IMG/VR virus record: IMGVR_UViG_3300020403_000005
Span: 20,363-84,362 of that record
Length of the DNA: 64,000 nt
Source: a virus
Direction: 5' to 3' (one strand)
Shown here piece by piece: positions 33,479 through 56,988 of this stretch. The notes beneath the pieces were generated by a model. It did not search any database, was not told the origin of the DNA, and was given only the letters and a program-made list of their open reading frames with translations. The position numbers and the translations under genes were made by a program. Position 1 is the stretch's first letter; the number at the start of each line of letters is the position of its first letter.

Positions 33479-33493
33479 AAGTCTTTAAATGTG

Positions 33494-34384
33494 TTAGCAG
33501 CCAGACTTAAATAAAATTTTGCCGTCCACGTCTGCTCCCTCTATGCATAAATTAATACACTGTTCTTTGTATCCAGCGGGTACACCTCCGCCACCGCCGC
33601 CGCCACCTGAAGTAGTCCAGCTTTTTCCTGCCCTATTTTCATCTATTAAAAAATCCGCTAATTTTATGCATCCACTTCCCTGCAAGTCACCCCAAGACAT
33701 TCCCTCGAAAGGATTGCAAGTCTCCTCGTCATGCCCAGAAAGCCTGATTCCGGTTGAGCTATTGGTTACATCGAGTCTATGAATCGCAGTTCTAATTGCG
33801 TGTCGATACAATCTAAAAGTATCAGACGTGGCATCTCCAACATAATAAGAATTCCCTATATTACCAAACTCATCAACAAATGTCGCTATGTCTGCGTTTG
33901 TGAATCCGTGCTGAAATCTAGTAAAAGTATCAGTATTCGCGTCCGAAACTATTCCAGTAATCGCGACTCCTGTTCCAGTGGGGCAACAAGAAAAATTCCA
34001 GTAATCTTTTGTTACGCTTGTGGATGTTTGCGTACTATCTGATACTTTTTTTGTTATATATATCTCTTCCCCAGATTCATAAGAAGGGGTAATCCACTGC
34101 TGCGTTCCTGACCCTATTAAATCTTGCGATACAACGGGGGGGTCAGTTCTTGCTTTTGTTTCGCTACCCTTCCTAGACTGAGAGTTTAATCTAATATAAT
34201 CTCCTCCGCCATAGTAATCCATAGTACGTAAACCTATGGGTTTAGACACGGCGACTTTTATGTTTGTTTTATTACCGCTAGAGTCAAATCCCAGTATAGT
34301 ACATATTAGAAAATCGTCACATATCTCTACCACTCTAGCTTTTTGCGATTCTTGCTTTGATAAATCTATAGTTTCAAATGCCAT
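33494..34384 (-). CDS. tail-associated protein
   Basis: Position in the tail operon; poly-Gly linker near the C-terminus. Confidence 0.55.
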   Translation of the reverse strand: MAFETIDLSKQESQKARVVEICDDFLICTILGFDSSGNKTNIKVAVSKPIGLRTMDYYGGGDYIRLNSQSRKGSETKARTDPPVVSQDLIGSGTQQWITPSYESGEEIYITKKVSDSTQTSTSVTKDYWNFSCCPTGTGVAITGIVSDANTDTFTRFQHGFTNADIATFVDEFGNIGNSYYVGDATSDTFRLYRHAIRTAIHRLDVTNSSTGIRLSGHDEETCNPFEGMSWGDLQGSGCIKLADFLIDENRAGKSWTTSGGGGGGGGVPAGYKEQCINLCIEGADVDGKILFKSGC

Positions 34385-37071: not shown

Positions 37072-37073
37072 AG

Positions 37074-39935: not shown

Positions 39936-41711
39936 TTAAAATCCTTGCTCCTCTCCATTATATACGCTAAAACTATCAACAAATCTAATTTTATTGTCAT
40001 TAGCAAGCAAGCTGTTGTCTGATACTAATTTATAATTTTTATTAATTATAATCCTCTGTCCGTTGTACCATACTTGAGGAGACAAGAAGCCAGATGGGTT
40101 AGAAATTAAAGAATTATTCAATTCTACAAAACGGTGATCATGCTTAATGAATGGAACCAAGGCTATTTCTCCAGTGGGCAAACCATGCAATTTACTTCTG
40201 TCTATATTTACAGAGTCATGTGCGCCTTCATACCATATGTGATCCGTGCCAGAAAGCATTTTTAATCCATTGATATATAAATCTTTATGTTCCCAAGCTA
40301 TTATTTGCTTAGAGTAGATTGTATTTCCAGATTCGTATCCAGTGAAATTCGCGGTTCCAGTCACCTTGTCATATATATTAGAATGATATATTCCACTATC
40401 CTGTATGCCCCCTGTGGGAACGATTTCATTAGTGCCAGTTTTATAGAAGTCATGTGATGCGCCCGATCTTTGGTAAAGTCCGTTTAAATAAAAGTTTATA
40501 TTCGACCCAGTATATCCAGTACCCAAGTTGTATTTCCCAGTTGAAGAGAATACGGGTTCCGCTTGAATGCCAACGTCAGGGTTAATACCCGTAAATGACC
40601 TAACTTCAACATTGTCAATTAAGTCCGAAACATCATAAAATAATGTAATATTTTTTCTTTTGTATTTTTCCAATAATGAATTATCAATATTTATTGATGG
40701 TTTTGCAAAAACTGTTCTAGTGCCAGTTAACAAACCAGTGCTGTAGCTGTATGTTATGGTTGTTCCGGTTTTGTCGCCAGATACGCCAGAGTTAACGTAG
40801 ATCGGAATATCCGCCCCACACCTCGACGCAATGACTCCAGACTGAACTTGTCTATATCCAGTTATTCCTTGACCAGTTACCCCGCTAGTCAAAGTTGGTA
40901 ATCCTGTAACCCCAGAGAAAGTAAACTGCTCTGTCGTAAGACCTCCGGTTGTATATCCAGAGGCTATCATTAAGTTGGCTAAATTTTTCGTTGTTCCGCT
41001 TGCGATAGCATTTTTAAATATAATTAAATCGTCATAATACCCGCTGAAGCCTGTATAACCATTACTAGCACTATAAAAATCTCCCACGTACAAATCGTTT
41101 GATAGGATAGTATCGGTGCTGGTAGACGTGATAGAGTCGGCGGTTGAAAAGGTTTCTCTTTTTTCGTTTTTGTATAGCTCATCATAAAAAGACATGGTTA
41201 CGCTGTTTGATGCCTTTGAGCGAACTACTGATATAATATTTTTTTCTCCCAACTCGCAATCTAAAGTAAATGTTTTTCTTTGGGAGTCTTTATTGTAGTA
41301 TTCAAAATATAATTTATGAGCACCATTCAGCCCTACGTTAAAGCCGCTTGCACTAGTGCCAGACTTCATACTAGAAAATAAAGTTCTACCTAGATTCCTA
41401 TTAGACGCAAAATCGGTGGTATAATAATTTAACAGTATTGTCCAATCTTCATTTTTAAATTCTGTTCCGACTTTAGCTATAGTATTTCCGTCGAAATACC
41501 CAGAGCCAGACACGGTATTTACATTGTCACTGTCGCACAAAGAAATAAGCGGGTAACTTTCTGACGCTTTCTTTGAGTCTTGAGACGAGTAAGTATTTTT
41601 GTCGTTAAAGGTGTACTGTCCAGAATAAGAGTCAAAGCTATAGAAACCCACCAAATCATCAAGATTTAGAGAATTAGTATTTAAATAATCTATTAGTAAA
41701 TTTCTATTCAT
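39936..41711 (-). CDS. LamG/concanavalin A-like domain tail protein
   Basis: LVGFYSFD, GYFDG, WTI, LYVG...FSGYYDDLIIFK. Confidence 0.7.
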   Translation of the reverse strand: MNRNLLIDYLNTNSLNLDDLVGFYSFDSYSGQYTFNDKNTYSSQDSKKASESYPLISLCDSDNVNTVSGSGYFDGNTIAKVGTEFKNEDWTILLNYYTTDFASNRNLGRTLFSSMKSGTSASGFNVGLNGAHKLYFEYYNKDSQRKTFTLDCELGEKNIISVVRSKASNSVTMSFYDELYKNEKRETFSTADSITSTSTDTILSNDLYVGDFYSASNGYTGFSGYYDDLIIFKNAIASGTTKNLANLMIASGYTTGGLTTEQFTFSGVTGLPTLTSGVTGQGITGYRQVQSGVIASRCGADIPIYVNSGVSGDKTGTTITYSYSTGLLTGTRTVFAKPSINIDNSLLEKYKRKNITLFYDVSDLIDNVEVRSFTGINPDVGIQAEPVFSSTGKYNLGTGYTGSNINFYLNGLYQRSGASHDFYKTGTNEIVPTGGIQDSGIYHSNIYDKVTGTANFTGYESGNTIYSKQIIAWEHKDLYINGLKMLSGTDHIWYEGAHDSVNIDRSKLHGLPTGEIALVPFIKHDHRFVELNNSLISNPSGFLSPQVWYNGQRIIINKNYKLVSDNSLLANDNKIRFVDSFSVYNGEEQGF

Positions 41712-43414
41712 TAGCTTACTTTTATGTACCCATACGCTTGATTATACGTCATATTATGTATGTTTTGCGAATAACTTTGCTTTGCTGATATTATTCTATT
41801 CTGCATTGTGTAATCTACGTTTTCTGACATTAGTATGGTATCAGAAGTCCCAACGCCTAACCATGTATTACCCAAGTTAAACATCATCTTGTTAACCAAT
41901 CTCTCTCCAAGAGAAGTCGGGGCAGATAAGGGGTCAGTTGTGACCTCACTTATTCTGCTGCTTCCGCCGTATACTCCATTTGGACCCGCGTGATTAATGT
42001 TGATAGTTGTAGAGAAGTCAACGGTCTCTCTATTTTTTGCGTTTAAATCTGTAATTATGTAATAACCATTTTGATTAACTGCCGCCGCTTCTCTGTATTG
42101 ATTTATGCTAGGTTTAACGCTGACCGTGTATTCTACATTCGAGGTATAGTTTCCGTTTGGTTCAGTATTGTTCAAAAAGTCTTTATTTGTAAATGTAGCA
42201 CTAACAGTTATTTCTCCCGCATTTGGGTTTCTGTTTATAGAAAGGTTGTCCATTGCTATTCTTAAAGGAAAAGTAATATTGTCGTAAAACTTAGAGTATA
42301 TTGTGTTTGCTAAGTTGTATAGATAATCACTACCCTCTATCGTACTCTCTACAAAAGATTCAGCGTCAGCGAGTCTTTGCTTTCTATTTCCTCTGCCCTT
42401 TATAGTTCCATTTAAACTAACTGTTGTTAATCCCATTATCTCGTCGGTACTCATTTCAACAGTATGGTCAAAATAACAAGTGCTAGAAGCGAAAAGCGGA
42501 TTATTATCGTAACTAGCTTTTACCGTAACAGTGTTATTGTTTAAATTTTGATCGAAGTTAAAATTTAAAGGTTTAGATAATAAGTCAGTTATCTTGGATA
42601 AAGACTCAGCCTTTGCGTGTAGGTCTAAAGTTTTAGAGTGGGCCAAGACTTCATCAGTTGTAAAATACTTTCCGCCTTTTACTGTTGCCGTTATATCGAC
42701 TTTGTCAAAATCTGCTGATTTATTTTTCTGAAGAGACGAAGAATAAGTAACTATCGGCGTATAGCTCGAAGCTCCATCTTGAAATGTGTAGTTTTCAGAT
42801 ATGGAGTAAGTTGAATTGATTCTGTCAATATTTTCGGAAGTATTGGTTAGTATTGGGTATGCGGTGGCTCCCCCGTTAACAAACTTTGGAGTTATCTTAT
42901 TGTTCCATCCGCTTAAACTCAGAACATAATTTTTAGCATTGTCAAATGGATTTGAGCCATCATATGATACACCTTTTGCGGAGACTTCGTGGGTAAGTGT
43001 ACTCGTACCATCATCGTTCATGTTGAACGAAAAGTTTTCGGCGGGGTCAACAACTCCGAGAGTTCCAGAGAAGTTATCATAATTTGATAAATTTATCGAA
43101 TAGTCAACCAAGGTTATTAATTTGCTTTCGTTGAATTGTATAGAGTCAACCTTACATCCAGAAAAAGAAGCTACGGTGACACCATCTTCTACAACTTCTA
43201 AAGTTTTAAATCCATTGTTGAATCCATTTGCTATACTTTGAGAAGCGGTTAAACAAGAGCTAAACGTACTTCCTGTAATTTGTCCATTTAAAGTTATGCT
43301 ATTTCTTTGAGCCTTTCTACCGCCATGAATAATCATGTCAGTAGACAACGTTACAAAAGGAGTCGGCTGACTGCCGAATACGTCTACGTTGTTGTATTTT
43401 ACCTCTGTGCTCAT
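41711..43414 (-). CDS. tail structural protein
   Basis: Beta-rich 567-aa ORF in the tail operon, similar to its upstream neighbour. Confidence 0.6.
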   Translation of the reverse strand: MSTEVKYNNVDVFGSQPTPFVTLSTDMIIHGGRKAQRNSITLNGQITGSTFSSCLTASQSIANGFNNGFKTLEVVEDGVTVASFSGCKVDSIQFNESKLITLVDYSINLSNYDNFSGTLGVVDPAENFSFNMNDDGTSTLTHEVSAKGVSYDGSNPFDNAKNYVLSLSGWNNKITPKFVNGGATAYPILTNTSENIDRINSTYSISENYTFQDGASSYTPIVTYSSSLQKNKSADFDKVDITATVKGGKYFTTDEVLAHSKTLDLHAKAESLSKITDLLSKPLNFNFDQNLNNNTVTVKASYDNNPLFASSTCYFDHTVEMSTDEIMGLTTVSLNGTIKGRGNRKQRLADAESFVESTIEGSDYLYNLANTIYSKFYDNITFPLRIAMDNLSINRNPNAGEITVSATFTNKDFLNNTEPNGNYTSNVEYTVSVKPSINQYREAAAVNQNGYYIITDLNAKNRETVDFSTTININHAGPNGVYGGSSRISEVTTDPLSAPTSLGERLVNKMMFNLGNTWLGVGTSDTILMSENVDYTMQNRIISAKQSYSQNIHNMTYNQAYGYIKVS

Positions 43415-43415
43415 T

Positions 43416-45254
43416 TTAAATTACTTCGATTAAATCATTGGCTTTTAGTTTTACATGTTTTGCAGAATAGCTATCATAGCCCTCGGCTACGAACCCTACT
43501 TCAAGATTCAAGTCTATTTTTCCTTGCGAAGAAAAAGTATAATTTAAATCTCGCACGAACATCTCTCTAATCCTCACGTTGGATAAATCGACAGGGATCA
43601 ATCGCATTTGATCAAAAGCTATTGTAATCATATAATTTAACTGCGTGTCTATATTTGGTGGAGCGGTTAAGTAATTTCCGTTTCTAACTTTTTGAGCAGA
43701 AACTTTTATTGACCTAGTTCCAAGTTTGGTTTGTTTACCGAACACGGGAGTTTGTAAAACTTCTCCAACATTTGGTACGAGTTGTGAATTAGTTATTAAT
43801 GTTGGTTCCGAATCAGACACTTCAACAGTTAAAGTATTCAACCCGATAGCGTTAGCGGTGGAACTGGGCAAAAACGTTCCATTGGCTACATATTCGCAAG
43901 AGTATGAAACTTGCCCACCCCTACTTGGATAACCTATGCTATATTTTGTTCTATTTAATGAGTCTTTTATAACATTATAATTAGAGTAATTATTAGCAAA
44001 GGCCCAATCACTTTGATGGTCTACAGCCAAAGCATTGACTCTATTAAATGCAGAATTATGAACTATTCCTGAGACTACATTTACTGCATCAAATGTATCG
44101 CTTAAATTTCCATAGGGTCTTATCGAGCCGTTTTCTGATATAGTTAAAGTGCCGCCAACTTTATCTTCAGAAATTGATTGTGTGTATTCATGTATCCCAG
44201 AAGATGTAAAAGATGGATTATTAGTAAAAGAAATATTATAATCAATAGTTTGCTCTGCTTGGTTTATGGTTGATCCTAATTCTGTATATTGAGAGAAAAG
44301 AGAATCAGAGTTACCCCCCTCGAAAGTCGCGGAAACTGACGTGAATAAATTATTACATCCCACGTAAGCGGTTCCTAACGATCCAGTAATTGAAGCTAAC
44401 TGAGTATAGGCGTTTTCAAAATTGTTTTGTTTTGCTTTTATTTTACCGTTTTCAGTTACGGTTAAGTTGCCTACTTCGTCTCTCTGAATGCTTCTGGATG
44501 TAGAAGACGTAGCATAAGCTGTGTCCTCGTCTAACGAAGAAAACTTTTTACTAAAGCTAAAATTAAGATTTACTAAATCGTAGCTTTCATTATAAAGCAT
44601 CTTAGACGATCTAATATTCGCATCGTTATATTTTCCAACGTTGTCAGAAAACAAGCCATAATCTGGCATATTGTTAACTTCGGTGTAAAATTGACTAGCT
44701 AAGTTTTGCGCGTTTGAAACATAATCATATCCAGCACTTCCTGAAATGTATCTTATGCTGAAATCATGATTAAACTCATACGTTCCATCTTCGGAAGTAG
44801 AAAAAGAAAAATTTTCATTTAAAGACTCGATTAAATCTGGTCTTCTGCTTTTTATTTCGTCTTTTAAATCAGAATTAAGTAAACTGGTTACTGCTGCGTC
44901 ATCATATGAGTTTTCATAAACTTGTAATTGTATGTCGTAACCAGCTAATCTTATAGGGTTTTCTCTTTCAGAAAAATCTACAGACAATACTCTACCCGTT
45001 CCGAAATTGACTCCATTTATTATAAACGCAGAATTGGTTTGACAAGAATCAGTCGCCGTTCTTCTAATTTCCTCGAATGTAGAAAAAGTATCTGAAATTC
45101 CACTGTTGTTGTTACTTGGCAACAAAATTCCTCTTAACCCGATTGTTTTTGATCGAGCGTAAGTAGCATATTCTTCTCCGAGGTATTTATTCTCGTAGGA
45201 AATAGATACCGCGCTTCCGCTAAGATTTAACGCATTTTGAAATGTTGTTGACAT
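43416..45254 (-). CDS. tail structural protein (distal-tail position)
   Basis: Beta-rich 612-aa ORF directly after the tape measure gene. Confidence 0.6.
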   Translation of the reverse strand: MSTTFQNALNLSGSAVSISYENKYLGEEYATYARSKTIGLRGILLPSNNNSGISDTFSTFEEIRRTATDSCQTNSAFIINGVNFGTGRVLSVDFSERENPIRLAGYDIQLQVYENSYDDAAVTSLLNSDLKDEIKSRRPDLIESLNENFSFSTSEDGTYEFNHDFSIRYISGSAGYDYVSNAQNLASQFYTEVNNMPDYGLFSDNVGKYNDANIRSSKMLYNESYDLVNLNFSFSKKFSSLDEDTAYATSSTSRSIQRDEVGNLTVTENGKIKAKQNNFENAYTQLASITGSLGTAYVGCNNLFTSVSATFEGGNSDSLFSQYTELGSTINQAEQTIDYNISFTNNPSFTSSGIHEYTQSISEDKVGGTLTISENGSIRPYGNLSDTFDAVNVVSGIVHNSAFNRVNALAVDHQSDWAFANNYSNYNVIKDSLNRTKYSIGYPSRGGQVSYSCEYVANGTFLPSSTANAIGLNTLTVEVSDSEPTLITNSQLVPNVGEVLQTPVFGKQTKLGTRSIKVSAQKVRNGNYLTAPPNIDTQLNYMITIAFDQMRLIPVDLSNVRIREMFVRDLNYTFSSQGKIDLNLEVGFVAEGYDSYSAKHVKLKANDLIEVI

Positions 45255-45281: not shown

Positions 45282-48200
45282 TTATCTACTGTATGGCATT
45301 GGCCCCGCAGGGAATCCTCCTTGTGCCGATTGTGGTGGTCTAGCAGGTGCGTTCGCAACTGCTATTAGAGCGTTAGCTGCTTGCTCTTGTCCTGCTGCTC
45401 TGAATGCTTCAGCTACTTGCTGTGTTTGCTCCGCCATTCTTCTTTCTAATTCTGCTTGGTAAGCTGCGGCGAGTTCTTCTTGAGATGGAGCATTGATAAC
45501 GATTTGGGTATTGTCTTGAGTATTAACAGCCGCACCTTCAACATTTTGATTTTGACCACCTGTCATTTCCTCTCTCATCTGAATGATCATTTGCTGAAAC
45601 TGTTCAACAAGATTTGAGATGTCTAAATTCTGGATTGCTTCGGGACGTTCCACTGGCTGTCCAGTCATCGGGTCATAACCTTCTAACCGATCATAAGAAA
45701 AGCTGAAAGGATTCATCGGTGCCGTATTGTCTCGCAAGCCGCCCTGCATCTGCACTAGCCTTCTTATTTCATCGTGATCGGCAAGTGCAGCCGCTGGCAG
45801 TCCAGTAACAGGATCAATGCCTCCATTCATCCCCGAAGCTATCCTCATTTGATCATTATATAAAACTGAGTTTTCGGCCATTGTACGCCCCCTCATTCCC
45901 ATTTGGGGGTCATATTTTCTAGCTTCTTCGAAAGCTCCTTGTCTTAATTTTTGTTCTATTTTTAAGTCTTCAAGGTGCTTCTGAGCTTCACGTTCGTCAA
46001 AAATGTCAGAGTATGCGCCCGAAGCTATTTCTTTTTCCATCCGTTCAATTTTAAGACCTCTTTCTATCATTCCCGCTTGAGTCGGCCCTTCGTACGATTG
46101 TTGCGACATAAGAGAAGGCAACCCAGTGACAGGATCAACTGGATCGGATGCGCCAACAGGTAATCCAGTGATAGGATCAATTGGACCCAATTGATCTAAG
46201 TTCTTTCGCTTTGGAAGTTGGTCAGGATGGACTCCTATTTTTTGTGCAGTAAGCTCATGTATTTTATTTTCTTTTAGCTTTCGAAATCTCTCTATATTTC
46301 TATCCGCTGCACCAGGAGTATTGCTGCCCGCGCCGAATCTGTCGTGATAAACGTTCGCTGCGAAATCTAATCCACCCATTCTCTCAAACTCTTGAAATTG
46401 CTGCTGTTGTGCGCTAAATACGGGTTTTAAATTATCCCCCTCTTCAACAAAACTTTTTGGCTGCATGAACCCAAGACTATAATCCATATTTCTTTGTATT
46501 TGCGCCGTTTCTTCTCTTTGTCTGGCTTGCCTTGCGGCTAGTTCTCGCGCTCGTTTTGCTTTTTGTTCTCTTTGTTGGTTTAAGAAAGCTAACCTTCCGC
46601 CTATACCATCGAAGCTTCCGCTGCTGGGTAACGCTTGATTTGTATAGTCTCTGTATCTGCGTAATCCCGCTACATCGCCCGCGCTATCTGGAAGCAAGTC
46701 TGAATTAAATCCTTCACCCATTATATTTTGAGGTAGATTTCTGGGGTTACTAGAGCCTAGTGTTCCCCCAAGAAGAATAGACTTTCTTTGTTTGGTGAGA
46801 GTTCTAGCTATCAACCCTTGAACATCTCCCGAACTGTCTAACTGGCCTTGGAAGGCCGCCATTTCTTCAGGAGACGCCCCCGTTCTTATCATTTCATCTT
46901 GTATAGCTCTTAGTTGAGATACTCTGTTGCCTTGCAAGCGATCTTTTGCTTTTTTAAGATTTCCTGTGTCAGTATTCATTCCCGCCGACTGAGCTTCTCT
47001 TAGCATCGTCTCTAGGTTTCTACTTTCCCCACTAAGAGCTTGTGCTCGAATCAAGGGCTTGGCAGCGGATAAACTTTCAAAAATTTCTGGATTTGTATTT
47101 ACGCCGAAGCCCTCTCCACCGAGAATTCCTAAATTTCTTTCTATATCTTCTATTGCCTGTAGACTATCGCTTTTTGGCCTGAACATTTTATCACTATCCA
47201 TTGAGGCTAAACTCCTACCAGCTTGAGCTTGTACTGCCTGTTGGCGCGTTTTATCTTTTCTGTTTTTTATGAGTCTGCCGATAGTTTGTTCGCCAGGAGT
47301 AGCTAATATTTCGCCCGCAGAACTGAGAACGCCCCCGATTAACCTCGGACCGCCCAGTAATGCGTTTTTTCCAGCTTCGCCTAAAGTTTTAGATTCAGCA
47401 AATTGTTCAAATGGACTCAACAAGGGATTTACTATGTTTCTACCTTTGTCTTTTAGCGACGTTGGGTCATTAATCATTCCCATAGTAAGACCTTGCACTG
47501 TTGAGAGATATTGACTCTCTGGATTTGATCCTACCATCGCTTTGTCGTCGAAGTAGCTCGTTGCCCCCATTACTGGACTACTGAAAATTGCTGCGGCTGC
47601 GCCACCCGCTCTTCCAACTCCACCCGATGGTGACTTTGGTGCTGTTATCCGAGGCAATGGTGTGCGTGTGCCGCTCGTTGGTGGGGCGACAAGCCTTGGT
47701 TTTTTAATGGGCATTGGCCTTGGCGTTGGCGGCGGTGTTGGCTGCTTGGGCTTGATTGGATCGATTTGCTCACCGCCGTAGCCTGGTATCTCTGGTCGTC
47801 CTATTCTAATGGCTGGTTTATTGGTTTTAGGAGTTGTTTCTAGGATTGTTTGCTGCGCTGTAGTTGTCGGTGCCGCTGCTGGTGTCGGTGCCGCTGCTGG
47901 TTTCGGTGTTAGTTTTGCTGGGTCGGTGTAGCGGTTTACTTGCTCTACCACTGGTGTCGGTGCTGCTTTTGGTGCTGAAGTCGGTTGTTTGAGCCTTTCT
48001 GTACCATCAGGGTCTGTTATAGTATTCTCTCTCAAAAACTGCTCCATCAAAGCTTGTTCTTGTTTTGTTACCGAGGGTGTTTGTGGTTTGGGCGTTTTAC
48101 CCTTCTTCTTTTTGTTCTTCTTTTCGCTCTTATTTTTGTTCTTCTTTTTGGTCTCTTCGCCCTTGCCAAATTTACTCGCGAGCTTATATCCCAATAATCC

Positions 48201-51200
48201 TAAACCGCCAAATACCCCAGCCAGCATAAATGCTTTGTCGTATTTTTTTCCATCCATCTTCTCGGAATCTTTCAAAGCAAACGTCTCTGCATCACGATTG
48301 ACGGGTATTTCCTCGTCCTTCGGAATTCTATCTAATAAATTATTTGGATTGTATGTTTTAACCGCGTTTCTTTTGTATCTTTCGGCAAACGTATGTGTGC
48401 CTTTGGCAGTTTTTCCATCTCTTTGTCCAGCCAAGTGAACGCTGTAAGTTTCTGGATCAAATATTAAATTATTTAAATCAACGCCAGTGTTTCTGCTTTC
48501 TTTTCTTGCTCCTCTTAAAATATCTCCGATTCTACTTGGCCCTCTTGTTGCGGGTGCGGGGGCGGGGGGTACTGGTGTTCCAGGAGCTGCTTGAGCGGGT
48601 GTATTTGGTTGTTGGGCAGTGTTGTTATAAATGCCTCTCAAGAAAGCAATCATACTAATCCCGTTTTTTCTTCTCCATTCTTCGCTTTTTCGATCAAGGT
48701 CTATAGCGTTTTGTAGCAACTCTTGAGTTGCAGTGTTCTCTTTTTCTCTTCCTGATTTTAAAATTGCAATAGCTGCTTGTTGCGCCGCTCTTCTTTCTTC
48801 AGTGCTTCTGTCTCCCATGAATCTAGACACGACTGATGCGGTTTGTCTGGCGATCTGCTCGTCACTCACCCTGTTGAGTTTGCTGGGGTCTGTAACATTC
48901 AAAGCTTCTAAGATTGCTGGCAGTGCTTTGATACCCCCTTCAGAACCCTGTGTCATGAGTAGCTGACCCGCTTTTACCATGTCTTTAACGTCAGTTTGAA
49001 AGATGCTTCCTAAGCTATCCATAGCCTCTGTCATGGCCTGACCAGCAAGGGTTGTATTTATATCAGTATTCTTTAAAGTTCCTGCGGTCATGATTCTTCT
49101 ACCGATATCACCCTCACCAAGTTGTTGGCGTAATCTTTTAGTTATACCATCAACATCTGCCTTGTTAAAGTCAATCTGTTCTTGAACTTCTTCTTTTTGT
49201 TGTCTTTCTCTTATGGCTTCGGTTAGTTCTGCTATTCTTCTGCCAAGTTCATCTTGAGAATTTGTAAGTTTTTCGTTAGCTATTCTTAGTGCTTTTTCTG
49301 CTGGTGTTTCGTCTTTTCTACCAAAGTCTACCTCTTGAAGAAGAGACTTACCTTCAGCCGTTTGTAGTGCGGCTAGTTGCTGTAAGCTCATTCCGCTTCC
49401 TTTCGATGCTAAATCGGCTGAAGCGTCAGTAATATCCGATCTTCGTTGATCTAATTCTTGTAGCCTCTTCTGCTCTTCAGGAGTCAGTTGATCCTTTGAT
49501 CTAAGACGACTAGACTCATTCATTATATTTTGCTCTTCTCTGGCAAGCTGTCTTTGAATTGAGTCTATCATTTCTTGTCTCTGCTTGGGATTTGCTCCTC
49601 CCATGCCAGCCAAGACACCCTCTAAATTTTGTACATTTGCTGGGTCTTTCGCTCGTCTAGCCGCATCCTGCAAACTAAACGCAGTTCTTGGGTCTTCTGT
49701 AATGCCCAATCTTGAGATTACTTGCTCTCTTGCTCCTCTTCTTATAAATTCTTTGCCTTCGTCTGTAGATAATCTCTGGTTTATTTCTTTGATAAAAGCA
49801 TCAATTAGTGGATCACGCTGGCCGCCTTTTCTTACGGATTCTTGTTGTTGTTTTTCTAAAAAGTCTCTTCTGCTTTCTAATTGAGTAACTGCATTGGCAG
49901 TTGCACCTCTTGTAGCTTCTTCAACGGCCTGTGCAATAGCTGTTCCCTCTTTGAGTCTTCCTGTGGTAGTGTCTAGTTCTGGAGCTAAACCCAAGAACTC
50001 TACGCCCTCAATACCCATATTCAAGGCGGCTCTGCCTCTAGCGGCCATACCGCCTCTAGTTCTTTGACCTGGTCCGAATTGACCCAAAGCCTTGGCGGCG
50101 GATACAAATCTTTCAACAGATTCTTTTATTTTAGATGGATCAAGAAAAGCCTCTATTCCGCCAGCGAGGTTTTTCATTACGTCTTTTTCCATATCGACGT
50201 TTATTTGAGCAACGCCGATGCCTCTTTGCTGCTCTCCAATCCTTAGTTCGGAACTGAATTCTTGCTGCGCTTCTGCTATCTCTTCTTGAGCCTGTCTTGC
50301 TCTTCTTGCGGCGTTTGCGGATTGAATCAACTCTCTTCTAAATTTAGCGAAATCACTTGTTGATAATTCTCTTAACACTAATTGTAATTGAGCAGATGCA
50401 TCATATGTGTCTCCAAGTATGTCTATAAGCTCTTCTTGACTTGATGTATGTATTTGAGTAGCGTTTTGCGCTTGACCCATATCCTGCGCGAAATCTCTAA
50501 AGTCTATTGCTTTTCTTATATCGTTTACGAACCTGTCGGCTTTTAATGCTCCTTTCGAGCCTTCGAATATATCTCTAAATTCTTTGCTTGCTCCTCCAAA
50601 TAGCTCAACCAAGCCGCTGACCACTCCAGAAGCTTCGTCTAAATCAACTTGTATGCCAGCAGATAATTGAGTTTGTAAATCTGCTTTGGCTTGCTTGCTT
50701 ACAATCTCCGCAATTTTTGATTGAAGTTCGGCGGGGTCAGTGATTCCTGCCATTTCAAATCTAAACTCATCTGGTATATCTAATAAAAGATTATCTAATT
50801 TTTCTCTTAATCTAATTAAAGTCGATGCTGCGGTTTTTGTATTTTTTGCTGCATCTTGAAATTCAGAAAAGGCTTGACCATATTGAGCAAGATTATTATT
50901 TAATTTAGTAAATTCTTCTTTTGATTTTTCTGCCGCTATTTTTATGGCTTCTCCCTTGGCTTGTAGGGCTTTTGCTATTCCACTTGATGCGCCAGCTAAT
51001 CCAATCAATCCTCCAGCGGCTAAACCAGCGGGACCAGGTAAAACACTAGCAATGCCACTAAATGTACTTATGCTAGAGCTAAGAGAGTTAACTATGGCGT
51101 CTCCCTTTTCGCTCATGCTTCCAGTTAAATTCTTAACAGTATCAGTTAATATTGGTAAAGCAAACGACAAACCCAAGGCTCTAGTTTCAAAACCCTCCAT

Positions 51201-54200
51201 AGCTTTACTAGGCTTGAGAAACGCGTCTTTAGTTTTACCGAGAATACCTCTTTGAGCTTTACCTGCTTTGGCTGCCGAATCTACTGTTTTATTAAATTTC
51301 GTGAGACGGTCGCCACTCAACTCCATGTCTTTGGCAAGCTCTCTTGTACTTTTTTCTAACTGTTCTGCGTCATCCCCGCCAGAGGAGTAAGCGAGCCTCA
51401 CTCTTTCCAAAGCGTCGGCTAATCTATCGGCCTCGTCATCTGCTAAACCAATCCCCTTGATATCTGTCACACTAAATCCACTTGTTTTTTCTGGAGCAAA
51501 ATTTGGAATGTGTCCCTGTGATTTGCCTTTTGTTTTGGGGTCTATACCAGCAGCGCGAGCCAACTGCATTCCATGCTCTAAACTAGTCTCACGCTTTTTA
51601 TCAAAAACGCCAAGACCCATTGGGTTTTGCGAAGTTCTTAGCGCAGAGTTTGAACCGATACCAATTTCTCGTCTACTGTTTCCAGTGGCAGACATTTCTC
51701 TATTGATCGCCTCTCCCAAAGAGCCTTTACCATAACCTAAAACTTCATTGAAGTTAGGAATAAAACCAGAAGATTTAAAAATGTTAGAGAAAAGACTACC
51801 TTTGATTGAGTCTTGTTCGTAGCTAAATCTAATTGTTTTATTTGCATTTTTTGCGCTTAGGACGTTCTCAGGTATTTTACCAAATTTTAAAATATCAGAA
51901 ACTTTTTCTCGGGCCTTGATTGGTTTATCGGTTCCTCCATTAATTAGCTCCTTGAAGCCTCCTACATTTCTTAATGTGGTTGTTTTTTTTCTGCCAAGTA
52001 AAGCTTTATTTAAATCCGGAGCTTTTCCTTGCTTTATTCTTTCTCTAATATATTTGTTTATAATGTAGTCATCGCCGTGTCCACTAGAATTAAAAATTGC
52101 ATCAGCGAAAGATGTATCTTGTTCCATCTTTAACTTAGCTCTTGAGATACCTCCTTTAATTGCATTAGATTTTAATTCTCTGTTTTCTGATTTATTAAAA
52201 TCTATCGCTCTGCTACTGTTGCTTGCGGCAACTCCAAAATTTTTCGCTAAAGCATTTTCAAATTGAACTCCAAGACCAGCCCCACCTATTTTTTTCAAAC
52301 CTTTTGAGCCTAATTTTTTTATTTCTTCTTGAAGTTCTTTGTATTTTTTTGTTCCAAGTTGTTTTTGGGGAGCCATTGCGTTGCGCGAATTGGGATTAGA
52401 TGCCCTAGACAATGACCCTTGATTTATTCCAAGTGCTTCCGCTGCGTCTCTTTGAGAAGGGTAGTCATTTGCTTTAATATCGCTAAGGACTTGATTCCAA
52501 TCTATCGCGAAGTTTGGAACAAAACCCTTATTTTTTCCGCTATAAAAAATTCCCCTCGGCCCAAGCGCATCGATATTCTTTTGCTCGTTATCTATTAAGT
52601 CTCTATCTAATTTATCAGCAATTAAACGTTTTTTATCTGGGCCAGTTAAATTTACTAACGGTTTTCGAACACCCTTCTTTTTCTGACTACCGAACATACT
52701 AGCTAAAGGCATAACTTTACCAACATTAACTCCAACTTTAGATAAAGCTTTTTTAATCGCTGGGGCGTCACCTTTGGCTCTAGCAGTGGCAATATCAACC
52801 ATTTCTTTGGAGGATTGAAGCCTTCTGCCTAATGCGGTTAAATCATTGGGTGTAATTTTTAAGACTTCATTTGGATCGTTCCAATTAAAAAATCCTTCTT
52901 TAATTATCGTACCATCTAAATCATAAAGCGGAGTCTTACGACCCTTTGCAGAAACAAAATTAGGAACAAAACCCCCGTACTGTAGCCCTGATCCGTCATG
53001 ACCCTGAATTTTTTCGTAGCGTCCGTCTGGAAAGAGCCAACCACCGTCCATGGTTTTACCCATTAGATTATTTTTTTTCACTAAATCGGCATGAAACATG
53101 GCAGTGGGATCGTAATGAATGGCCATATTTTGATCTCTTACCGCCAAGTGTCTTCCGCCAGCACCCCTCCCTTTGGGAAGTTTTTGCCCTATTTGATATT
53201 TAACGAAATTTGGAATAAAGCCACCACTTTTAACTTTATCTATTTTATCTTTAGTGATCTCATTAAATTTTTGATTCTTTGTATTTCTTAGGGCATTTAA
53301 AGCGGGCAAGTTTACTTTATCATCTCCGAGTGCAAACCTTTCCCCCAGATAGTTCATAGCTTTAAAATGTGTATTTTGTTGTAAACCAAGCATGGGATTA
53401 GCGGCAATCGTGTCTGTGACGGCTTTTAAAGATAACTTGGCTTTTTTTGCGCCTTCTACACTGCTTCTAACTTCAATGGGTCTATTAATCAAGCCTTCGT
53501 GTCCTACGAAATGCTTATCTAAAAAATTTTCTCCTTGTTTACTTTGTATGCCTTTTAAACCCATAGGCATATCGACGCCCCCAGAGCCAGCCCCAGAAGC
53601 ACCGCCCAACATTTGAATCATATCCTCAAACATTCTACCTCTAACTTGAGGGAAACCAACTCTATCTAATGTAATTGCAGACGGGTTATAAGAACCAAAC
53701 GTATCCGCAGCGGAGTTAGCAATGGCGGTTTTATATTGTTTTTCTACGCTCTTATTAAATTTATCTGAAACAGACTTTTTGAAGCCCACTAAGGTCTCTT
53801 CTCCTGTTCTAAATTTCTCCGCGCCGTCTTGCTTTCCTGGTAAAGATGCAATTTTTTCTCCAGCGAAATCAGCATCTGGAGCTAATACCCCAGCGGGCAT
53901 ACGCCTAGCGATGGCCGCCATTAATTTCCCGCGCTGCATTGCCTCTTTTACGATTTTAGTTTGTTCGCTAGTAGCAAAATTTGGTACAAACCCCTCACTT
54001 AATGAATAAGGATCAATTCCAGTTTTCTTTATTGAATTTGCTCGATGTAATTTTCCTTCAATGCTATCTTTCGGGGGATTGATGAAGGGTTGTCGCATAC
54101 CAGAAACCTTAACCTTTTCTTCGTCAGTGTTTCTTATGATAGACCCTACGCCAGCTATGTTATCTTTCACCGCTCTAGTTGATGAATTAGAATAAGAAGC

Positions 54201-55904
54201 GTTTCTAATCTCCATTTCTTTCATCACCTTTTCTCTACTGGAGAAGTTAGGAATAAATCCTTCAGATTTTAATTTAGCATTACCCAAGGTTAAGGCTTGC
54301 CCTCCACTCGCCAACGTTCTTACTTGCGCTCCAGCACTGGTAAGTAAGCTAGAAAGCTGCCTAATAACGGTCGCCTCTTTCTCTAGCATTGATGTCTCTT
54401 TTGCTATCCTGCTGATGATTAAATTATGAGCTTCTGCTACATCTAAAGTTCCGTCCTCAATTCTGTCTAAAATTTCTGGATTGTCGGCTAGAACCTGTGA
54501 AACTTTTTGTTGTATTTGAAGTTGCTGTTGAGAAGCAGCACCTATTCCTGATATAGTTTTAAAAGCATCAGTAACCTGTCTGCTTAAATTTGTGAACACT
54601 TTAATTAAAGTTACGCCCAATACGGCGAAACCAGGTCCAGCTAAAAATTTTCCTATTCCGCCTAATACCCCAGAAGCTATCTTCTCCCCTGCGCTTTCGG
54701 CATTTTCTAAATCTATATTATCTAAAGCCGCATTTATACCACCCAAACCTTTTGAGATCGCTGGTCCAAAAGTTATTTTACCTACCTGTGATCCAAACTT
54801 TCTAAAGTTCTCAATAGTTTTGTTTAATGTTGCACTTACTGTTTTGTTTAATTCTTCATTTCTTCTGGCGGCTTCATCAGTAGCTGTATTAGAGATTTCT
54901 AAAGCATTGTTGTAAAGTGAAAATTCTTTACCCAAATCTCTTAACGCCGCTTTTAAAACGTTAACTTGGAATACACCACCAACTAATTCTGCTATTTGAG
55001 ACCTTTGGGCGGAACTCAGAGTGTCATATGTTTGAGCTAAATCTTTTAAAATTCCGATTGCTGGTTTTGTATTGCCAGCTAAATCTCTTACGCCTATTCC
55101 TATATTCTCTAGCTCTTTGATTACTCTGGGTCTTTGAATGCGAGTAAATATAGTTTTGAATGAGTTACCAATAACAGCACCACCACGAGCGGTAATTTGC
55201 TGTGCGGAGGTTACAATAGCTATTAATTCGTCCAAACTAACACCAGCCTCTTGAGCCGAGCTACCCACTCTTTGAATAGCTTTAGCTAAATCTCCAGAAC
55301 TGACAGCGAACGCTGCATCAACAGCAGCTAACTTGCTTACAAACTCACTTGAATCCAAAGCCGCTTGACTAAAAGAGTTTAAAGCGGCAGTGACAGCTTC
55401 CACAGATTCGGCTGCTTTTAAACCAGATAACCTAGTTAACACTAAAGCGTCTTGAGTTCTTTTTAGGGTTTCTTCTACACTTAAACCTTGACGAGATAAT
55501 TCTGTTGCGGCTTCAGCTACTTCATTAAAGCTTTGCCCTGTATTTTTCGCTACGTTAAAAAGGCTTTTGGAAAATTTATTTAAAGTGCCAGAACTTACAT
55601 TAAGAATTACATTAATATCAGCTAAACTTTTCTCTACCTGAATTGAAGAATCTACAATAGCTTTTAAGCCCTGCTGTACAGCGACTAGAGCACCAGCAGA
55701 AGCACCGAAGGCTAACACGCGAGCATTAGAGGCTTCTAGAGCCTTTTGGAACTCACCCATTTGACCAGTAATTTTGCCAAGCGGATTTTTGAAATTGCCC
55801 GTTCCGCCTAGGTTAAGATTAACCTTTTTCTTGCGGACCTTGTCAATTTCTTTAACAAGTGGCCTTACATCGCCACCCACCTCTATTCTAATGTCTTCTG
55901 GCAT
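45282..55904 (-). CDS. tape measure protein, 3540 aa, with an internal domain-cassette array
   Basis: N-terminal tape-measure core (VAEAATELSRQG...VDAAFAVSSGDLAKAIQRVG...GAVIGNSFKTIFTRI), A/L-rich helical regions and predicted TM segments; follows tube and chaperone genes. Confidence 0.9.
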   Translation of the reverse strand: MPEDIRIEVGGDVRPLVKEIDKVRKKKVNLNLGGTGNFKNPLGKITGQMGEFQKALEASNARVLAFGASAGALVAVQQGLKAIVDSSIQVEKSLADINVILNVSSGTLNKFSKSLFNVAKNTGQSFNEVAEAATELSRQGLSVEETLKRTQDALVLTRLSGLKAAESVEAVTAALNSFSQAALDSSEFVSKLAAVDAAFAVSSGDLAKAIQRVGSSAQEAGVSLDELIAIVTSAQQITARGGAVIGNSFKTIFTRIQRPRVIKELENIGIGVRDLAGNTKPAIGILKDLAQTYDTLSSAQRSQIAELVGGVFQVNVLKAALRDLGKEFSLYNNALEISNTATDEAARRNEELNKTVSATLNKTIENFRKFGSQVGKITFGPAISKGLGGINAALDNIDLENAESAGEKIASGVLGGIGKFLAGPGFAVLGVTLIKVFTNLSRQVTDAFKTISGIGAASQQQLQIQQKVSQVLADNPEILDRIEDGTLDVAEAHNLIISRIAKETSMLEKEATVIRQLSSLLTSAGAQVRTLASGGQALTLGNAKLKSEGFIPNFSSREKVMKEMEIRNASYSNSSTRAVKDNIAGVGSIIRNTDEEKVKVSGMRQPFINPPKDSIEGKLHRANSIKKTGIDPYSLSEGFVPNFATSEQTKIVKEAMQRGKLMAAIARRMPAGVLAPDADFAGEKIASLPGKQDGAEKFRTGEETLVGFKKSVSDKFNKSVEKQYKTAIANSAADTFGSYNPSAITLDRVGFPQVRGRMFEDMIQMLGGASGAGSGGVDMPMGLKGIQSKQGENFLDKHFVGHEGLINRPIEVRSSVEGAKKAKLSLKAVTDTIAANPMLGLQQNTHFKAMNYLGERFALGDDKVNLPALNALRNTKNQKFNEITKDKIDKVKSGGFIPNFVKYQIGQKLPKGRGAGGRHLAVRDQNMAIHYDPTAMFHADLVKKNNLMGKTMDGGWLFPDGRYEKIQGHDGSGLQYGGFVPNFVSAKGRKTPLYDLDGTIIKEGFFNWNDPNEVLKITPNDLTALGRRLQSSKEMVDIATARAKGDAPAIKKALSKVGVNVGKVMPLASMFGSQKKKGVRKPLVNLTGPDKKRLIADKLDRDLIDNEQKNIDALGPRGIFYSGKNKGFVPNFAIDWNQVLSDIKANDYPSQRDAAEALGINQGSLSRASNPNSRNAMAPQKQLGTKKYKELQEEIKKLGSKGLKKIGGAGLGVQFENALAKNFGVAASNSSRAIDFNKSENRELKSNAIKGGISRAKLKMEQDTSFADAIFNSSGHGDDYIINKYIRERIKQGKAPDLNKALLGRKKTTTLRNVGGFKELINGGTDKPIKAREKVSDILKFGKIPENVLSAKNANKTIRFSYEQDSIKGSLFSNIFKSSGFIPNFNEVLGYGKGSLGEAINREMSATGNSRREIGIGSNSALRTSQNPMGLGVFDKKRETSLEHGMQLARAAGIDPKTKGKSQGHIPNFAPEKTSGFSVTDIKGIGLADDEADRLADALERVRLAYSSGGDDAEQLEKSTRELAKDMELSGDRLTKFNKTVDSAAKAGKAQRGILGKTKDAFLKPSKAMEGFETRALGLSFALPILTDTVKNLTGSMSEKGDAIVNSLSSSISTFSGIASVLPGPAGLAAGGLIGLAGASSGIAKALQAKGEAIKIAAEKSKEEFTKLNNNLAQYGQAFSEFQDAAKNTKTAASTLIRLREKLDNLLLDIPDEFRFEMAGITDPAELQSKIAEIVSKQAKADLQTQLSAGIQVDLDEASGVVSGLVELFGGASKEFRDIFEGSKGALKADRFVNDIRKAIDFRDFAQDMGQAQNATQIHTSSQEELIDILGDTYDASAQLQLVLRELSTSDFAKFRRELIQSANAARRARQAQEEIAEAQQEFSSELRIGEQQRGIGVAQINVDMEKDVMKNLAGGIEAFLDPSKIKESVERFVSAAKALGQFGPGQRTRGGMAARGRAALNMGIEGVEFLGLAPELDTTTGRLKEGTAIAQAVEEATRGATANAVTQLESRRDFLEKQQQESVRKGGQRDPLIDAFIKEINQRLSTDEGKEFIRRGAREQVISRLGITEDPRTAFSLQDAARRAKDPANVQNLEGVLAGMGGANPKQRQEMIDSIQRQLAREEQNIMNESSRLRSKDQLTPEEQKRLQELDQRRSDITDASADLASKGSGMSLQQLAALQTAEGKSLLQEVDFGRKDETPAEKALRIANEKLTNSQDELGRRIAELTEAIRERQQKEEVQEQIDFNKADVDGITKRLRQQLGEGDIGRRIMTAGTLKNTDINTTLAGQAMTEAMDSLGSIFQTDVKDMVKAGQLLMTQGSEGGIKALPAILEALNVTDPSKLNRVSDEQIARQTASVVSRFMGDRSTEERRAAQQAAIAILKSGREKENTATQELLQNAIDLDRKSEEWRRKNGISMIAFLRGIYNNTAQQPNTPAQAAPGTPVPPAPAPATRGPSRIGDILRGARKESRNTGVDLNNLIFDPETYSVHLAGQRDGKTAKGTHTFAERYKRNAVKTYNPNNLLDRIPKDEEIPVNRDAETFALKDSEKMDGKKYDKAFMLAGVFGGLGLLGYKLASKFGKGEETKKKNKNKSEKKNKKKKGKTPKPQTPSVTKQEQALMEQFLRENTITDPDGTERLKQPTSAPKAAPTPVVEQVNRYTDPAKLTPKPAAAPTPAAAPTTTAQQTILETTPKTNKPAIRIGRPEIPGYGGEQIDPIKPKQPTPPPTPRPMPIKKPRLVAPPTSGTRTPLPRITAPKSPSGGVGRAGGAAAAIFSSPVMGATSYFDDKAMVGSNPESQYLSTVQGLTMGMINDPTSLKDKGRNIVNPLLSPFEQFAESKTLGEAGKNALLGGPRLIGGVLSSAGEILATPGEQTIGRLIKNRKDKTRQQAVQAQAGRSLASMDSDKMFRPKSDSLQAIEDIERNLGILGGEGFGVNTNPEIFESLSAAKPLIRAQALSGESRNLETMLREAQSAGMNTDTGNLKKAKDRLQGNRVSQLRAIQDEMIRTGASPEEMAAFQGQLDSSGDVQGLIARTLTKQRKSILLGGTLGSSNPRNLPQNIMGEGFNSDLLPDSAGDVAGLRRYRDYTNQALPSSGSFDGIGGRLAFLNQQREQKAKRARELAARQARQREETAQIQRNMDYSLGFMQPKSFVEEGDNLKPVFSAQQQQFQEFERMGGLDFAANVYHDRFGAGSNTPGAADRNIERFRKLKENKIHELTAQKIGVHPDQLPKRKNLDQLGPIDPITGLPVGASDPVDPVTGLPSLMSQQSYEGPTQAGMIERGLKIERMEKEIASGAYSDIFDEREAQKHLEDLKIEQKLRQGAFEEARKYDPQMGMRGRTMAENSVLYNDQMRIASGMNGGIDPVTGLPAAALADHDEIRRLVQMQGGLRDNTAPMNPFSFSYDRLEGYDPMTGQPVERPEAIQNLDISNLVEQFQQMIIQMREEMTGGQNQNVEGAAVNTQDNTQIVINAPSQEELAAAYQAELERRMAEQTQQVAEAFRAAGQEQAANALIAVANAPARPPQSAQGGFPAGPMPYSR
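51498..54260 (-). repeat. seven dispersed G(F/H)(I/V)PNF-coding 18-nt repeats
   Basis: At 54243-54260, 53976-53993, 53205-53222, 52956-52973, 52509-52526, 51750-51767 and 51498-51515. Confidence 0.92.
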
Positions 55905-55962: not shown

Positions 55963-56988
55963 TTAGTCTAATTCGCCGTGTATTTTAAGCATATCCATCA
56001 TATCTAACGACTTTTTACCTTTCTCTTTCATTAGTTTGGATGCTGATGTATTTAAGTCCACTACATTTCTATCATCTCCGCTTGTGTCTGTCATTGACAT
56101 TAACTCTTCTTTAGTTGCCCCAAACACAGTGCTTCCGCCAACTTCTTTTTCTGGGGCAGAAGAGCTACTTGAGGAAGAACCCCCCATTGCGTCATACCAA
56201 TCTGCTGTTTCTTTTAGTGTTTCGTATCTGGGTGGAGTTTTGCCTTTTTGTTCTATGATGGTTTTATTTCTAACCCCCGAAGCAAAAAGGTCTGCTTGAT
56301 AATTTGTTAAATTGCAAACTGGCTTACCATAAAATACATATGGATCATCTTTACAAATCATTATAGAATTTATAAAAAACGCCGCCGCAGACACTTTTCT
56401 TATTTCCGATTGTGAAAATTGTCCGAGTTTAGCGTTATTAAGTAAAACATAAGCTGTTAACTCTTGATCATCAAGATCGTCAAATTCTTCTTCTGTGAAT
56501 TTTAATTGAGTTAATTCTATGTCTTTGTGAAGGGTATACTGTAAATATTTTTCATTTGCTTTTTTGTTTGAGTAGCTTTCGCAAGTTACTCCGAGTAGAG
56601 AAGATTTCTCTTCGGACATTTCTGATAATTTTTTTTCTTGCTTTTTAATCTCGCGTTCAACTTGTTTAACTTGAGACTTTACAACTAGTTTAGCTTTAGT
56701 TGTGTATAAAGAGCTAACGTGACTTGCTAGGTCTTTTAATTCCTCATCTTTCTCTTTTGACCATAATTGTTGCTCAATTAAAGTATTAATTTTCTCCTCT
56801 TCAGAGGAAAGCCCTTTTTGATGAGCTTCATAATAAATTTTATTTTTGTATTCTTGAATCCAGCCGTGGTCTATATCAGATAAATGCTTTATGTACATCG
56901 TGTTTGAATCATATTCAAGCACGGAATAACCATTGAGTATATCTTTATATACCCTTTGAGCGTTCTGAATCTCTTCGGCAAAACTCAA
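55963..56988 (-). CDS. putative tail assembly chaperone
   Basis: Lies between tube and tape measure genes; TTG start overlaps the upstream TGA. Confidence 0.5.
   Translation of the reverse strand: MSFAEEIQNAQRVYKDILNGYSVLEYDSNTMYIKHLSDIDHGWIQEYKNKIYYEAHQKGLSSEEEKINTLIEQQLWSKEKDEELKDLASHVSSLYTTKAKLVVKSQVKQVEREIKKQEKKLSEMSEEKSSLLGVTCESYSNKKANEKYLQYTLHKDIELTQLKFTEEEFDDLDDQELTAYVLLNNAKLGQFSQSEIRKVSAAAFFINSIMICKDDPYVFYGKPVCNLTNYQADLFASGVRNKTIIEQKGKTPPRYETLKETADWYDAMGGSSSSSSSAPEKEVGGSTVFGATKEELMSMTDTSGDDRNVVDLNTSASKLMKEKGKKSLDMMDMLKIHGELD

Follow-up and report, generated by a model that had tools for sequence, protein, structure and literature searches.

Enzyme motifs embedded in tape measure proteins (TMPs) of phages are exemplified by the muralytic domain of T5 pb2 and the wall-hydrolase motif of mycobacteriophage TM4, and to our knowledge these inserts are single wall-degrading domains which no motif fences off. 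A giant TMP of 5,002 amino acids (aa), gp96 of the Thermus phage P23-45, is described in the passages devoted to it as carrying in its N-terminal part the virion RNA polymerase that transcribes the pre-early genes (PMC10770324). For the Sle1-type TMP-related effectors of actinobacterial contractile injection systems, the sections that deal with their functional domain report that it differs by species and can be exchanged experimentally (PMC13277306, 2026). Here we describe a TMP, encoded in the IMG/VR virus record IMGVR_UViG_3300020403_000005, in which cassettes of mutually unrelated sequence stand in series between copies of one short peptide. Relatives of this protein and its variants in wild populations gain, lose and replace cassettes, with junctions located at or inside the peptide.

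The record is a single contig of 84,362 bp, the final 64 kb of which were analysed and are referred to as the window (64,000 nucleotides (nt); all coordinates below are window positions). Of interest here is an open reading frame (ORF) for a protein of 3,540 aa, which is a TP901-type TMP. Residues 119-306 match the Pfam family PF10145 (PhageMin_Tail) with 108.2 bits at a curated cut-off of 33.2, and 16 PHROG families match at about residues 20-470, 15 of them annotated as tape measure (best E 3.9e-53). Pfam detects only PF10145/TMP_3 in the protein, plus a sub-threshold match to SLATT_4 (E 0.008). Residues 549-1469 form a rack of independently folding modules, with a conserved entry module (cassette 1, S1), a conserved exit module (cassette 6, S6) and variable cassettes between them. 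The gene and its parts are, in the order of the protein:

45282..55904, minus strand: TMP gene, 3,540 aa, an ORF with PF10145 and PHROG matches that takes up 12.6% of the genome
54261..55904, minus strand: conserved N-terminal core of the TMP (residues 1-548), which includes the hydrophobic segment 413-438 and aligns in 51-79 of 86 large homologues
54243..54260, minus strand: motif 1, GFIPNF, residues 549-554
53994..54242, minus strand: cassette 1 (S1), 83 aa, conserved entry module that ends G-I-D-P-Y; BLAST matches in 20 of 27 homologues
53976..53993, minus strand: motif 2, GFVPNF, residues 638-643; one metagenome joint starts within it
53223..53975, minus strand: cassette 2 (S2), 251 aa, in a cluster of only 2 members
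53205..53222, minus strand: motif 3, GFIPNF, residues 895-900; three metagenome joints end within it and one starts at its last letter
52974..53204, minus strand: cassette 3 (S3), 77 aa, small and highly conserved; missing from one wild contig
52956..52973, minus strand: motif 4, GFVPNF, residues 978-983; joints at 52955, 52962, 52966 and 52970
52527..52955, minus strand: cassette 4 (S4), 143 aa, a predicted capless HAD phosphatase resembling the phosphatase of T4 Pnkp
52509..52526, minus strand: motif 5, GFVPNF, residues 1127-1132; a replacement joint at 52532 is 6 nt off
51768..52508, minus strand: cassette 5 (S5), 247 aa, with a possible helix-turn-helix (HTH) and restriction-endonuclease-like domain (weak matches); 96% identical in P0002, the closest homologue
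51750..51767, minus strand: motif 6, GFIPNF, residues 1380-1385
51516..51749, minus strand: cassette 6 (S6), 78 aa, conserved exit module with RE..AG, NPxGLGV and GI[DN]PKT
51498..51515, minus strand: motif 7, GHIPNF, residues 1464-1469
45282..51497, minus strand: remaining 2,071 residues of the TMP up to its C-terminus, among them a Pro/Lys-rich stretch and two hydrophobic segments (1618-1636 and 2558-2576)

The motif G[FH][IV]PNF thus occurs seven times (residues 549, 638, 895, 978, 1127, 1380 and 1464), no further PNF was found in the 3,540-aa TMP, and the copies leave spacers of 83, 251, 77, 143, 247 and 78 aa; an earlier reading of the DNA letters and their translations (the sequence-only reading) had listed exactly these sites and lengths and no others, and all of them were reproduced. 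Over 2,000 shuffles of the TMP the full motif never appeared, and the string PNF was met 0.3 times on average and at most four times. Searched in all six frames, the 84,362-bp genome has the form G-x-[IV]-PNF only in the TMP ORF. The conserved object is the peptide rather than the DNA, since codon choice varies freely at synonymous positions among the seven copies, the 18-mers that encode them agree pairwise at no more than 11-17 of 18 letters (13.8 on average), and the 30 nt flanking each of them show no relationship. This pattern supports the proposal of the sequence-only reading that selection acts on the motif peptide.

The wider family bears a consensus of [AS]-x-G-[FLYH]-[IV]-P-N-[FY]-A. 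Leave-one-out counts put the glycine at 536 of 539 sites and the proline at 536 of 537, the asparagine at 536 of 575 (39 being replaced, mostly by S (25), A (7) or G (4), with Q and K seen too) and the final phenylalanine at 536 of 595, with Y in 41 others. Position 2 is taken by F (374), L (64), Y (54) or H (44) and position 3 by I (314) or V (222). Structure models generated with AlphaFold2 (AF2) are available for cassettes 4 and 6, and in both of them the flanking motifs have a predicted local distance difference test score (pLDDT) below 50 beside well-folded cores; the junction peptide is predicted by these models to lie in disordered linkers.

Both the family and the layout of the array extend well beyond this one phage. 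A word-indexed search with residues 540-1480 retrieved 27 giant TMPs of 2,196-4,800 aa with 2-7 motifs apiece, and an exhaustive phmmer scan of 1.84 billion representatives returned 198 proteins at E <=0.001. The homologue set used here comprises 173 sequences including the query, 87 of them at least 1,500 aa long. Each of these 87 contains the motif, 85 contain two or more copies, and together they hold 458 motifs (1-13 per protein) when the PN[FY] variant is allowed. At the DNA level, a strict pattern of two motifs 65-75 codons apart, the chance expectation of which is far below 1 by a hand estimate, was matched by 114 IMG/VR contigs and 4 genome contigs. All 118 loci have an ORF with at least two motifs, and the 26 ORFs that are complete measure 1,867-3,302 aa. 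The 4 genome contigs belong to metagenome-assembled genomes labelled Proteobacteria (3) and Saccharibacteria (1), labels which we do not take as host evidence. No isolate phage gave a tblastn match to the cassette region; in the isolate phages of the collection searched, similarity is limited to the generic TMP core and reaches no further than about residue 450 of the query protein.

When 130 multi-motif proteins are split at the motif, they yield 420 segments that fall into 176 BLAST clusters, 127 of which are singletons. Segments of the S6 type (66 members, about 70 aa) come last in 61 of 66 cases and those of the S1 type (37 members, about 81 aa) come first in 35 of 37, and what stands between the two types is diverse and shifts in ordinal position. 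The alignment of the 86 large homologues to the query has the same shape: 51-79 of them align at residues 1-650, 3-14 at residues 651-1350 and up to 59 at residues 1351-1470, while none aligns at the C-terminal 1,240 residues. The edges of BLAST blocks lie within 10 aa of a motif edge for 58% of the starts and 69% of the ends, as compared to 13% for random points. Within the query itself, the six spacers have no significant mutual BLAST similarity (best E 0.023). Conserved flanks with cassettes varying in number and identity, and spacers unlike one another, are what the sequence-only reading led one to expect. The idea that the entry and exit modules are paralogues was rejected as unsupported: with the motifs removed, hhalign gives a probability of 0.7%, and the high S1-S6 scores obtained with the motifs included come from the shared motif.

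Exchange of cassettes is seen in the comparison with P0002. The two proteins are 78% identical in the N-terminal core, 71% in cassette 1 and 95%, 96% and 92% in cassettes 3, 5 and 6, respectively. The slot of cassette 2 is filled in P0002 by 215 aa with 31% identity over part of the length, and in the slot of cassette 4 the 143-aa HAD module of the query faces a 161-aa module (residues 946-1106 of P0002) that has a Walker-A-like GAAGTGKTT and no similarity to it. Similarity ends and restarts at the motifs, exact to the residue. Beyond motif 7 the two proteins are 45% identical up to about residue 2307 and unrelated from there on. A more distant relative on a 56-kb IMG/VR contig (L001), with seven syntenic upstream genes at 32-48% identity and a TMP core at 45%, has only cassette 3 in common with the query, at 79% identity and in the fourth of five slots, whereas the query holds it in the third of six. 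Cassette 3 is generally well preserved: it keeps 79-95% identity between TMPs whose cores agree at only about 45%, stands at differing ordinal positions and has diverged at synonymous sites. Recent horizontal transfer was rejected as the cause: the third-codon positions of the query and L001 copies are only 57% identical, as opposed to 79% of the amino acids, and the high conservation of the cassette thus reflects constraint. Cassette 3 has no recognised family.

The same kind of exchange is visible in wild populations. The window stretch is present in marine or seawater metagenomes from 12 studies, one of which is possibly the source of the sequence, and contigs of four metagenome runs were compared with window positions 50500-55000. 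Two runs contain near-identical pieces (10 of 12 and 9 of 12 pieces at least 99% alike), and the runs X5 and X6 carry variants. One X5 contig, of 3,549 nt, keeps to the window across cassette 5 (27 differences over 956 nt), has positions 52533-52954 (422 nt, cassette 4) swapped for 476 other letters, resumes in cassette 3 (16 differences in 268 nt) and diverges once more, precisely at the final letter of motif 3 (53222). The inserted stretch is longer by 54 nt, or 18 codons, which fits the 161-aa cassette of P0002. A second X5 contig, of 311 nt and low depth (3.7), joins 52962 to 53212, and this skip of 249 nt removes cassette 3 together with one motif and leaves an intact in-frame hybrid GFIPNF, with 4 letters common at the joint where the 18-mers are read across. 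That the two 18-mers differ at 5 of 18 positions and have no long shared word argues against a misjoin by the assembler. X6, which comes from a separate study, has a joint of 52966 to 53206 at a depth of 23.6. Altogether nine joints were recorded, and 10 of their 18 endpoints lie within 6 nt of a motif, in windows that make up 4.7% of the stretch, although the endpoints are not independent since three of the nine joints affect the same cassette.

The sequence-only reading had offered the 18-nt coding repeats as possible crossover points. In wild variants the joints of gained, lost and replaced cassettes do fall at the motif or within it. To call the repeats near-identical was an overstatement, however, and homologous recombination via the 18-mers is unsupported in the form in which it was worded, given repeats with 11-17 of 18 letters alike, unrelated flanks and a clean deletion junction with only 4 letters in common. 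What the peptide does provide is a constant frame: because the same in-frame peptide flanks each cassette, an exchange that is joined within it would yield a functional protein, which would explain the modular evolution of the array.

What do the cassettes encode? The best characterised is cassette 4, for which sequence motifs and predicted fold support a complete HAD phosphatase domain whose ends coincide with the motifs, in line with the suggestion of the sequence-only reading that one segment is an entire enzyme domain. In an alignment of ten homologous cassettes with six short proteins added, D995, D997, T999 and R1042 (D26, D28, T30 and R73 of the alignment) are invariant in all 16 sequences and T1040 and A1041 (T71 and A72) are conserved at >=90%; the lysine (PDKK) and the acidic I/V-D-[ND]-[DE] motif (LIDNE), read by eye, are kept in most rows. 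Free-standing homologues of 131-163 aa (P0096, P0119 and P0120) lack the motifs. The AF2 model reaches a pLDDT above 90 over about 130 residues (about 990-1119), and every top row of its Foldseek search is a HAD phosphatase, with weak E values. The top structure in VIA-align is the T4 Pnkp 3'-phosphatase (5uj0_A; Z 10.9, root-mean-square deviation 3.2 A, 119 aligned residues), followed by Pnkp1 (4xru_D, Z 10.5) and AphA (Z about 9). Cassette 4 alone matches no HAD family in Pfam at E up to 10, and its assignment to HAD rests on motifs and fold for this reason. Cassette 4 and the 3'-phosphatase of T4 polynucleotide kinase/phosphatase (PDB 5uj0, 2ia5, 1ltq) have in common the predicted capless HAD fold (119 of the 143 cassette residues aligned) and the DxDxT nucleophile motif. 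They differ in that identity is only 13% and the kinase domain is absent from cassette 4, and AphA-type acid phosphatases score nearly as well. The kinase-like (P-loop) module of P0002 and the phosphatase-like module of the query, which occupy the same slot, recall by analogy the two halves of T4 Pnkp.

The other cassettes are less telling. Cassette 2 gave no lead in Pfam, PDB sequences or the Atlas. Cassette 5 has sub-threshold Pfam hits to Cro, NUMOD1 and HTH_50 at cassette residues 15-38, and weak Atlas leads at 0.77 to ThaI, PDDEXK_16, SmaI and PvuII clusters; with HTH hits below threshold and Atlas leads no better than this, we do not claim a nuclease. The AF2 model of cassette 6 has a core with pLDDT 73-84 and a helix-strand-strand-helix order, for which neither Foldseek (best E 2.7) nor VIA (best Z 2.7) found a matching fold. 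In the cassettes of nine further homologues Pfam detected nothing but a weak AAA_33 match (E 0.098), at residues 1257-1317 of P0029.

Gene order around the TMP is conserved with L001 and across 50 loci. Two upstream genes stand out by their position:

55963..56988, minus strand: 341-aa ORF in the tail-chaperone position, next to the TMP on its upstream side; no recognised family
56985..57902, minus strand: 305-aa ORF, second upstream of the TMP; no recognised family

Among the 50 loci with upstream sequence, the family of the 341-aa ORF occurs in all 50, its median distance from the TMP being 53 nt, and that of the 305-aa ORF in 43. Neither ORF has a match in Pfam, PHROG or PDB sequences. Both sit where tail assembly chaperones usually do and are two to three times larger than these; lambda G, for example, has about 140 aa and is thus shorter than either. 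A 360-aa ORF (58411-59493, minus strand) belongs to a family that recurs in 53 related loci, on the upstream side of the TMP in 29 and on its downstream side in 41, a distribution that suggests paralogous tail proteins. None of the 17 ORFs around the TMP (26270-45254 and 55963-63889, minus strand, including one of 2,402 aa) has a Pfam hit at the curated cut-off, and the 10 of them that were scanned against PHROGs have no match there. The structural module of this phage is unusually dark to annotation.

Some features of the TMP beyond the array deserve mention. Residues from about 2308 to 3540 (45282-48983, minus strand) have no BLAST match at E 1e-4 among the 86 large homologues, and against P0002 the C-terminal 1,230 residues or so give one weak match only (23% identity, E 8e-6). 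This part of the protein contains a Lys/Pro-rich low-complexity stretch and the hydrophobic segment 2558-2576. A 66-nt indel variant (50822 to 50889; window 50774-50889) occurs in metagenome contigs in the C-terminal TMP region, with no motif near.

How, then, might the array work? We suggest that the cassettes are cargo that would be built into the virion within the TMP, would leave the tail with it at infection and would then act on targets in the cytoplasm. It is an established property of TMPs that they leave the tail at infection, and the cytoplasm-directed character of cassette 4 and the precedent of P23-45 gp96 both back this part of the proposal, which we regard as fairly probable. The peptide at each junction, in turn, would be read by one common factor. 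The sequence-only reading had proposed a cleavage or sorting signal that would release cargo domains. The peptide may most likely be a site of processing at which the modules are set free, either while the tail matures or once the protein has been ejected; the points in favour are its presence at every junction, the predicted accessibility of the linker and a strictness like that of specific viral protease sites. The candidate scissile bonds would lie between G and F or between N and F. The former is a candidate because of the small residues at -3 and -1 before it, which recall the rule for cuts of the signal-peptidase type. We tentatively place processing only slightly ahead of docking, without being confident of it. 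The explanation as a whole, a cargo rack combined with a motif that is read at the junctions, we consider evenly poised between right and wrong.

A number of points weigh against this proposal. Only one of the four variable cassettes has a supported function, and we infer cleavage, packaging and delivery from sequence for an uncultured phage that is known from marine metagenomes. The motif is found in no other ORF of the 84-kb genome, which makes a general prohead protease an unlikely reader. No protease was recognised in the TMP, its 17 neighbours or the two upstream families, with the first 20 kb of the record outside the scan, and an asparagine that gives way to S, A, G, Q or K at 39 of the 575 sites is a poor fit for Asn-driven self-cleavage. 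Moreover, cuts at the first and the last motif would sever the ruler itself, and three copies of folded domains of 140-250 aa are hard to accommodate in the lumen of a tail tube, which is about 4 nm wide. Finally, genes are never split at the motif (0 of 56 ORF ends and 0 of 52 ORF starts), and the P23-45 authors, where they discuss the fused enzyme, propose that it acts tethered and is not released (PMC10770324).

An alternative is that the peptide is never cut and serves instead for docking or handling, by binding one common partner in tail assembly. Such a partner might be one of the two conserved upstream proteins or the tube lumen, and the inserts would thereby be kept soluble, unfolded or in register while the tube polymerises. 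A short hydrophobic peptide in predicted disordered linkers, with near-invariant G and P, hydrophobic residues at positions 2, 3 and 6 and tolerance of small residues at position 5, fits a bound turn, and the failure to find a protease and the co-occurrence of the 341-aa and 305-aa families with motif-bearing TMPs (50 of 50 and 43 of 50 loci) are further points in favour. Then again, the upstream proteins have no recognisable family and are candidate partners only, and their co-occurrence may merely reflect synteny within one phage lineage; we think of docking as possible but rather doubtful. The intact genes would also be compatible with cassettes that remain attached to the TMP and work on incoming DNA or nearby host factors at the entry pore, joined by a passive linker that is kept since exchanges which preserve the peptide give viable proteins. 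The array lies between the hydrophobic segments 413-438 and 1618-1636, and an action at the TMP pore is what the P23-45 authors propose, in their discussion of the fused RNA polymerase, for that enzyme (PMC10770324). A passive linker, however, would not keep the glycine (536 of 539 sites) and the proline (536 of 537) across clusters at <=50% identity while synonymous sites drift, and this invariance makes it unlikely; we consider the tethered arrangement with such a linker improbable. Least of all do we expect that the cassettes are no cargo and serve the tail, as plug, length spacers or envelope-penetrating modules, or act in the producing cell and are then discarded. Three of the four variable cassettes do lack a supported enzymatic function, as do both conserved modules, and TMPs with wall-degrading inserts are known. 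But cassette 4 resembles a nucleic-acid end-healing phosphatase, the target of which would be cytoplasmic, and cassette content varies between near-identical strains, which is unexpected for parts that determine tail geometry; a role of this kind therefore appears very improbable.

Cargo that travels with the TMP and is marked at its junctions by a peptide that is read has consequences that can be spelled out in a bolder form, which we consider unlikely as it stands. The peptide might act across a large group of aquatic phages as a universal plug-in signal, by which any domain set between two copies would be loaded into the tail within the TMP, enter the host before the DNA does and be released there by cleavage. 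If so, a phage population would shuffle at one locus a shared library of hundreds of early effectors, among them end-healing enzymes, nucleases and others. If the cut were placed between G and F, the new N-terminal residue would be F, L or Y at 492 of 560 sites (88%). These residues are bacterial N-degron residues and would give the effectors a built-in short life.

TMPs are mostly viewed as rulers and channel formers, and in the widespread family described here exchangeable folded modules make up about a quarter of the protein. The family numbers at least 198 clusters at 50% identity and, by the strict pattern, 114 viral contigs, and most of its modules have no recognisable family. If the modules are delivered, the locus would be a rich source of early phage effectors and counter-defence enzymes, which the fencing peptide makes findable by pattern, and the peptide would lend itself to the loading of foreign proteins into phage tails. 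Whether or not the modules are delivered, the locus is an unusually clean example from nature of domains being shuffled in frame at a defined peptide, and the shuffling is visible in wild populations.

How does this TMP relate to the systems described so far? With TP901-1-type TMPs it has in common the N-terminal core (PF10145) and an enzyme inside the ruler. To gp96 of P23-45, as portrayed in the passages on this protein, it would be similar as a giant TMP that serves as delivery vehicle for an enzyme acting in the host cytoplasm right after ejection (PMC10770324). The likeness is functional only: gp96 has a single fused enzyme, as opposed to an exchangeable array of several cassettes, contains no PN[FY] and gives no BLAST hit with the query TMP at E 0.01 or better. 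Polyvalent proteins of phages and conjugative elements (Iyer et al. 2017), in the account given of them in the main text of PMC5512222, are likewise large mosaics of unrelated effector domains with predicted entry alongside the DNA and sometimes predicted processing. That main text does not contain the words 'tape measure', and its passages on these proteins name no recurrent junction peptide (PMC5512222). Measured by this class, the query has six mutually unrelated modules, one of them with a supported enzymatic identity, and Pfam did not detect the polyvalent hallmarks (MPTase, ArdC-N and methylases) in the query or in nine homologues. The Sle1-type effectors, compared here by their description in the relevant sections, resemble the query as a TMP-derived platform with a swappable module and differ from it in having one C-terminal functional domain, in belonging to a cellular system and in lacking a motif-fenced array (PMC13277306). 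No motif strings or motif-fenced TMP array were found in the relevant papers of the open literature, the supplements of PMC5512222 and PMC10770324 being outside this coverage. A recurrent conserved peptide at every domain junction, which the query TMP displays, is otherwise the mark of viral polyproteins with protease-cut junctions. Taken together, TMPs with embedded enzymes and polyvalent proteins are known kinds, and what is new in the TMP described here is the invariant peptide that fences its cassettes and their exchange at the level of populations.

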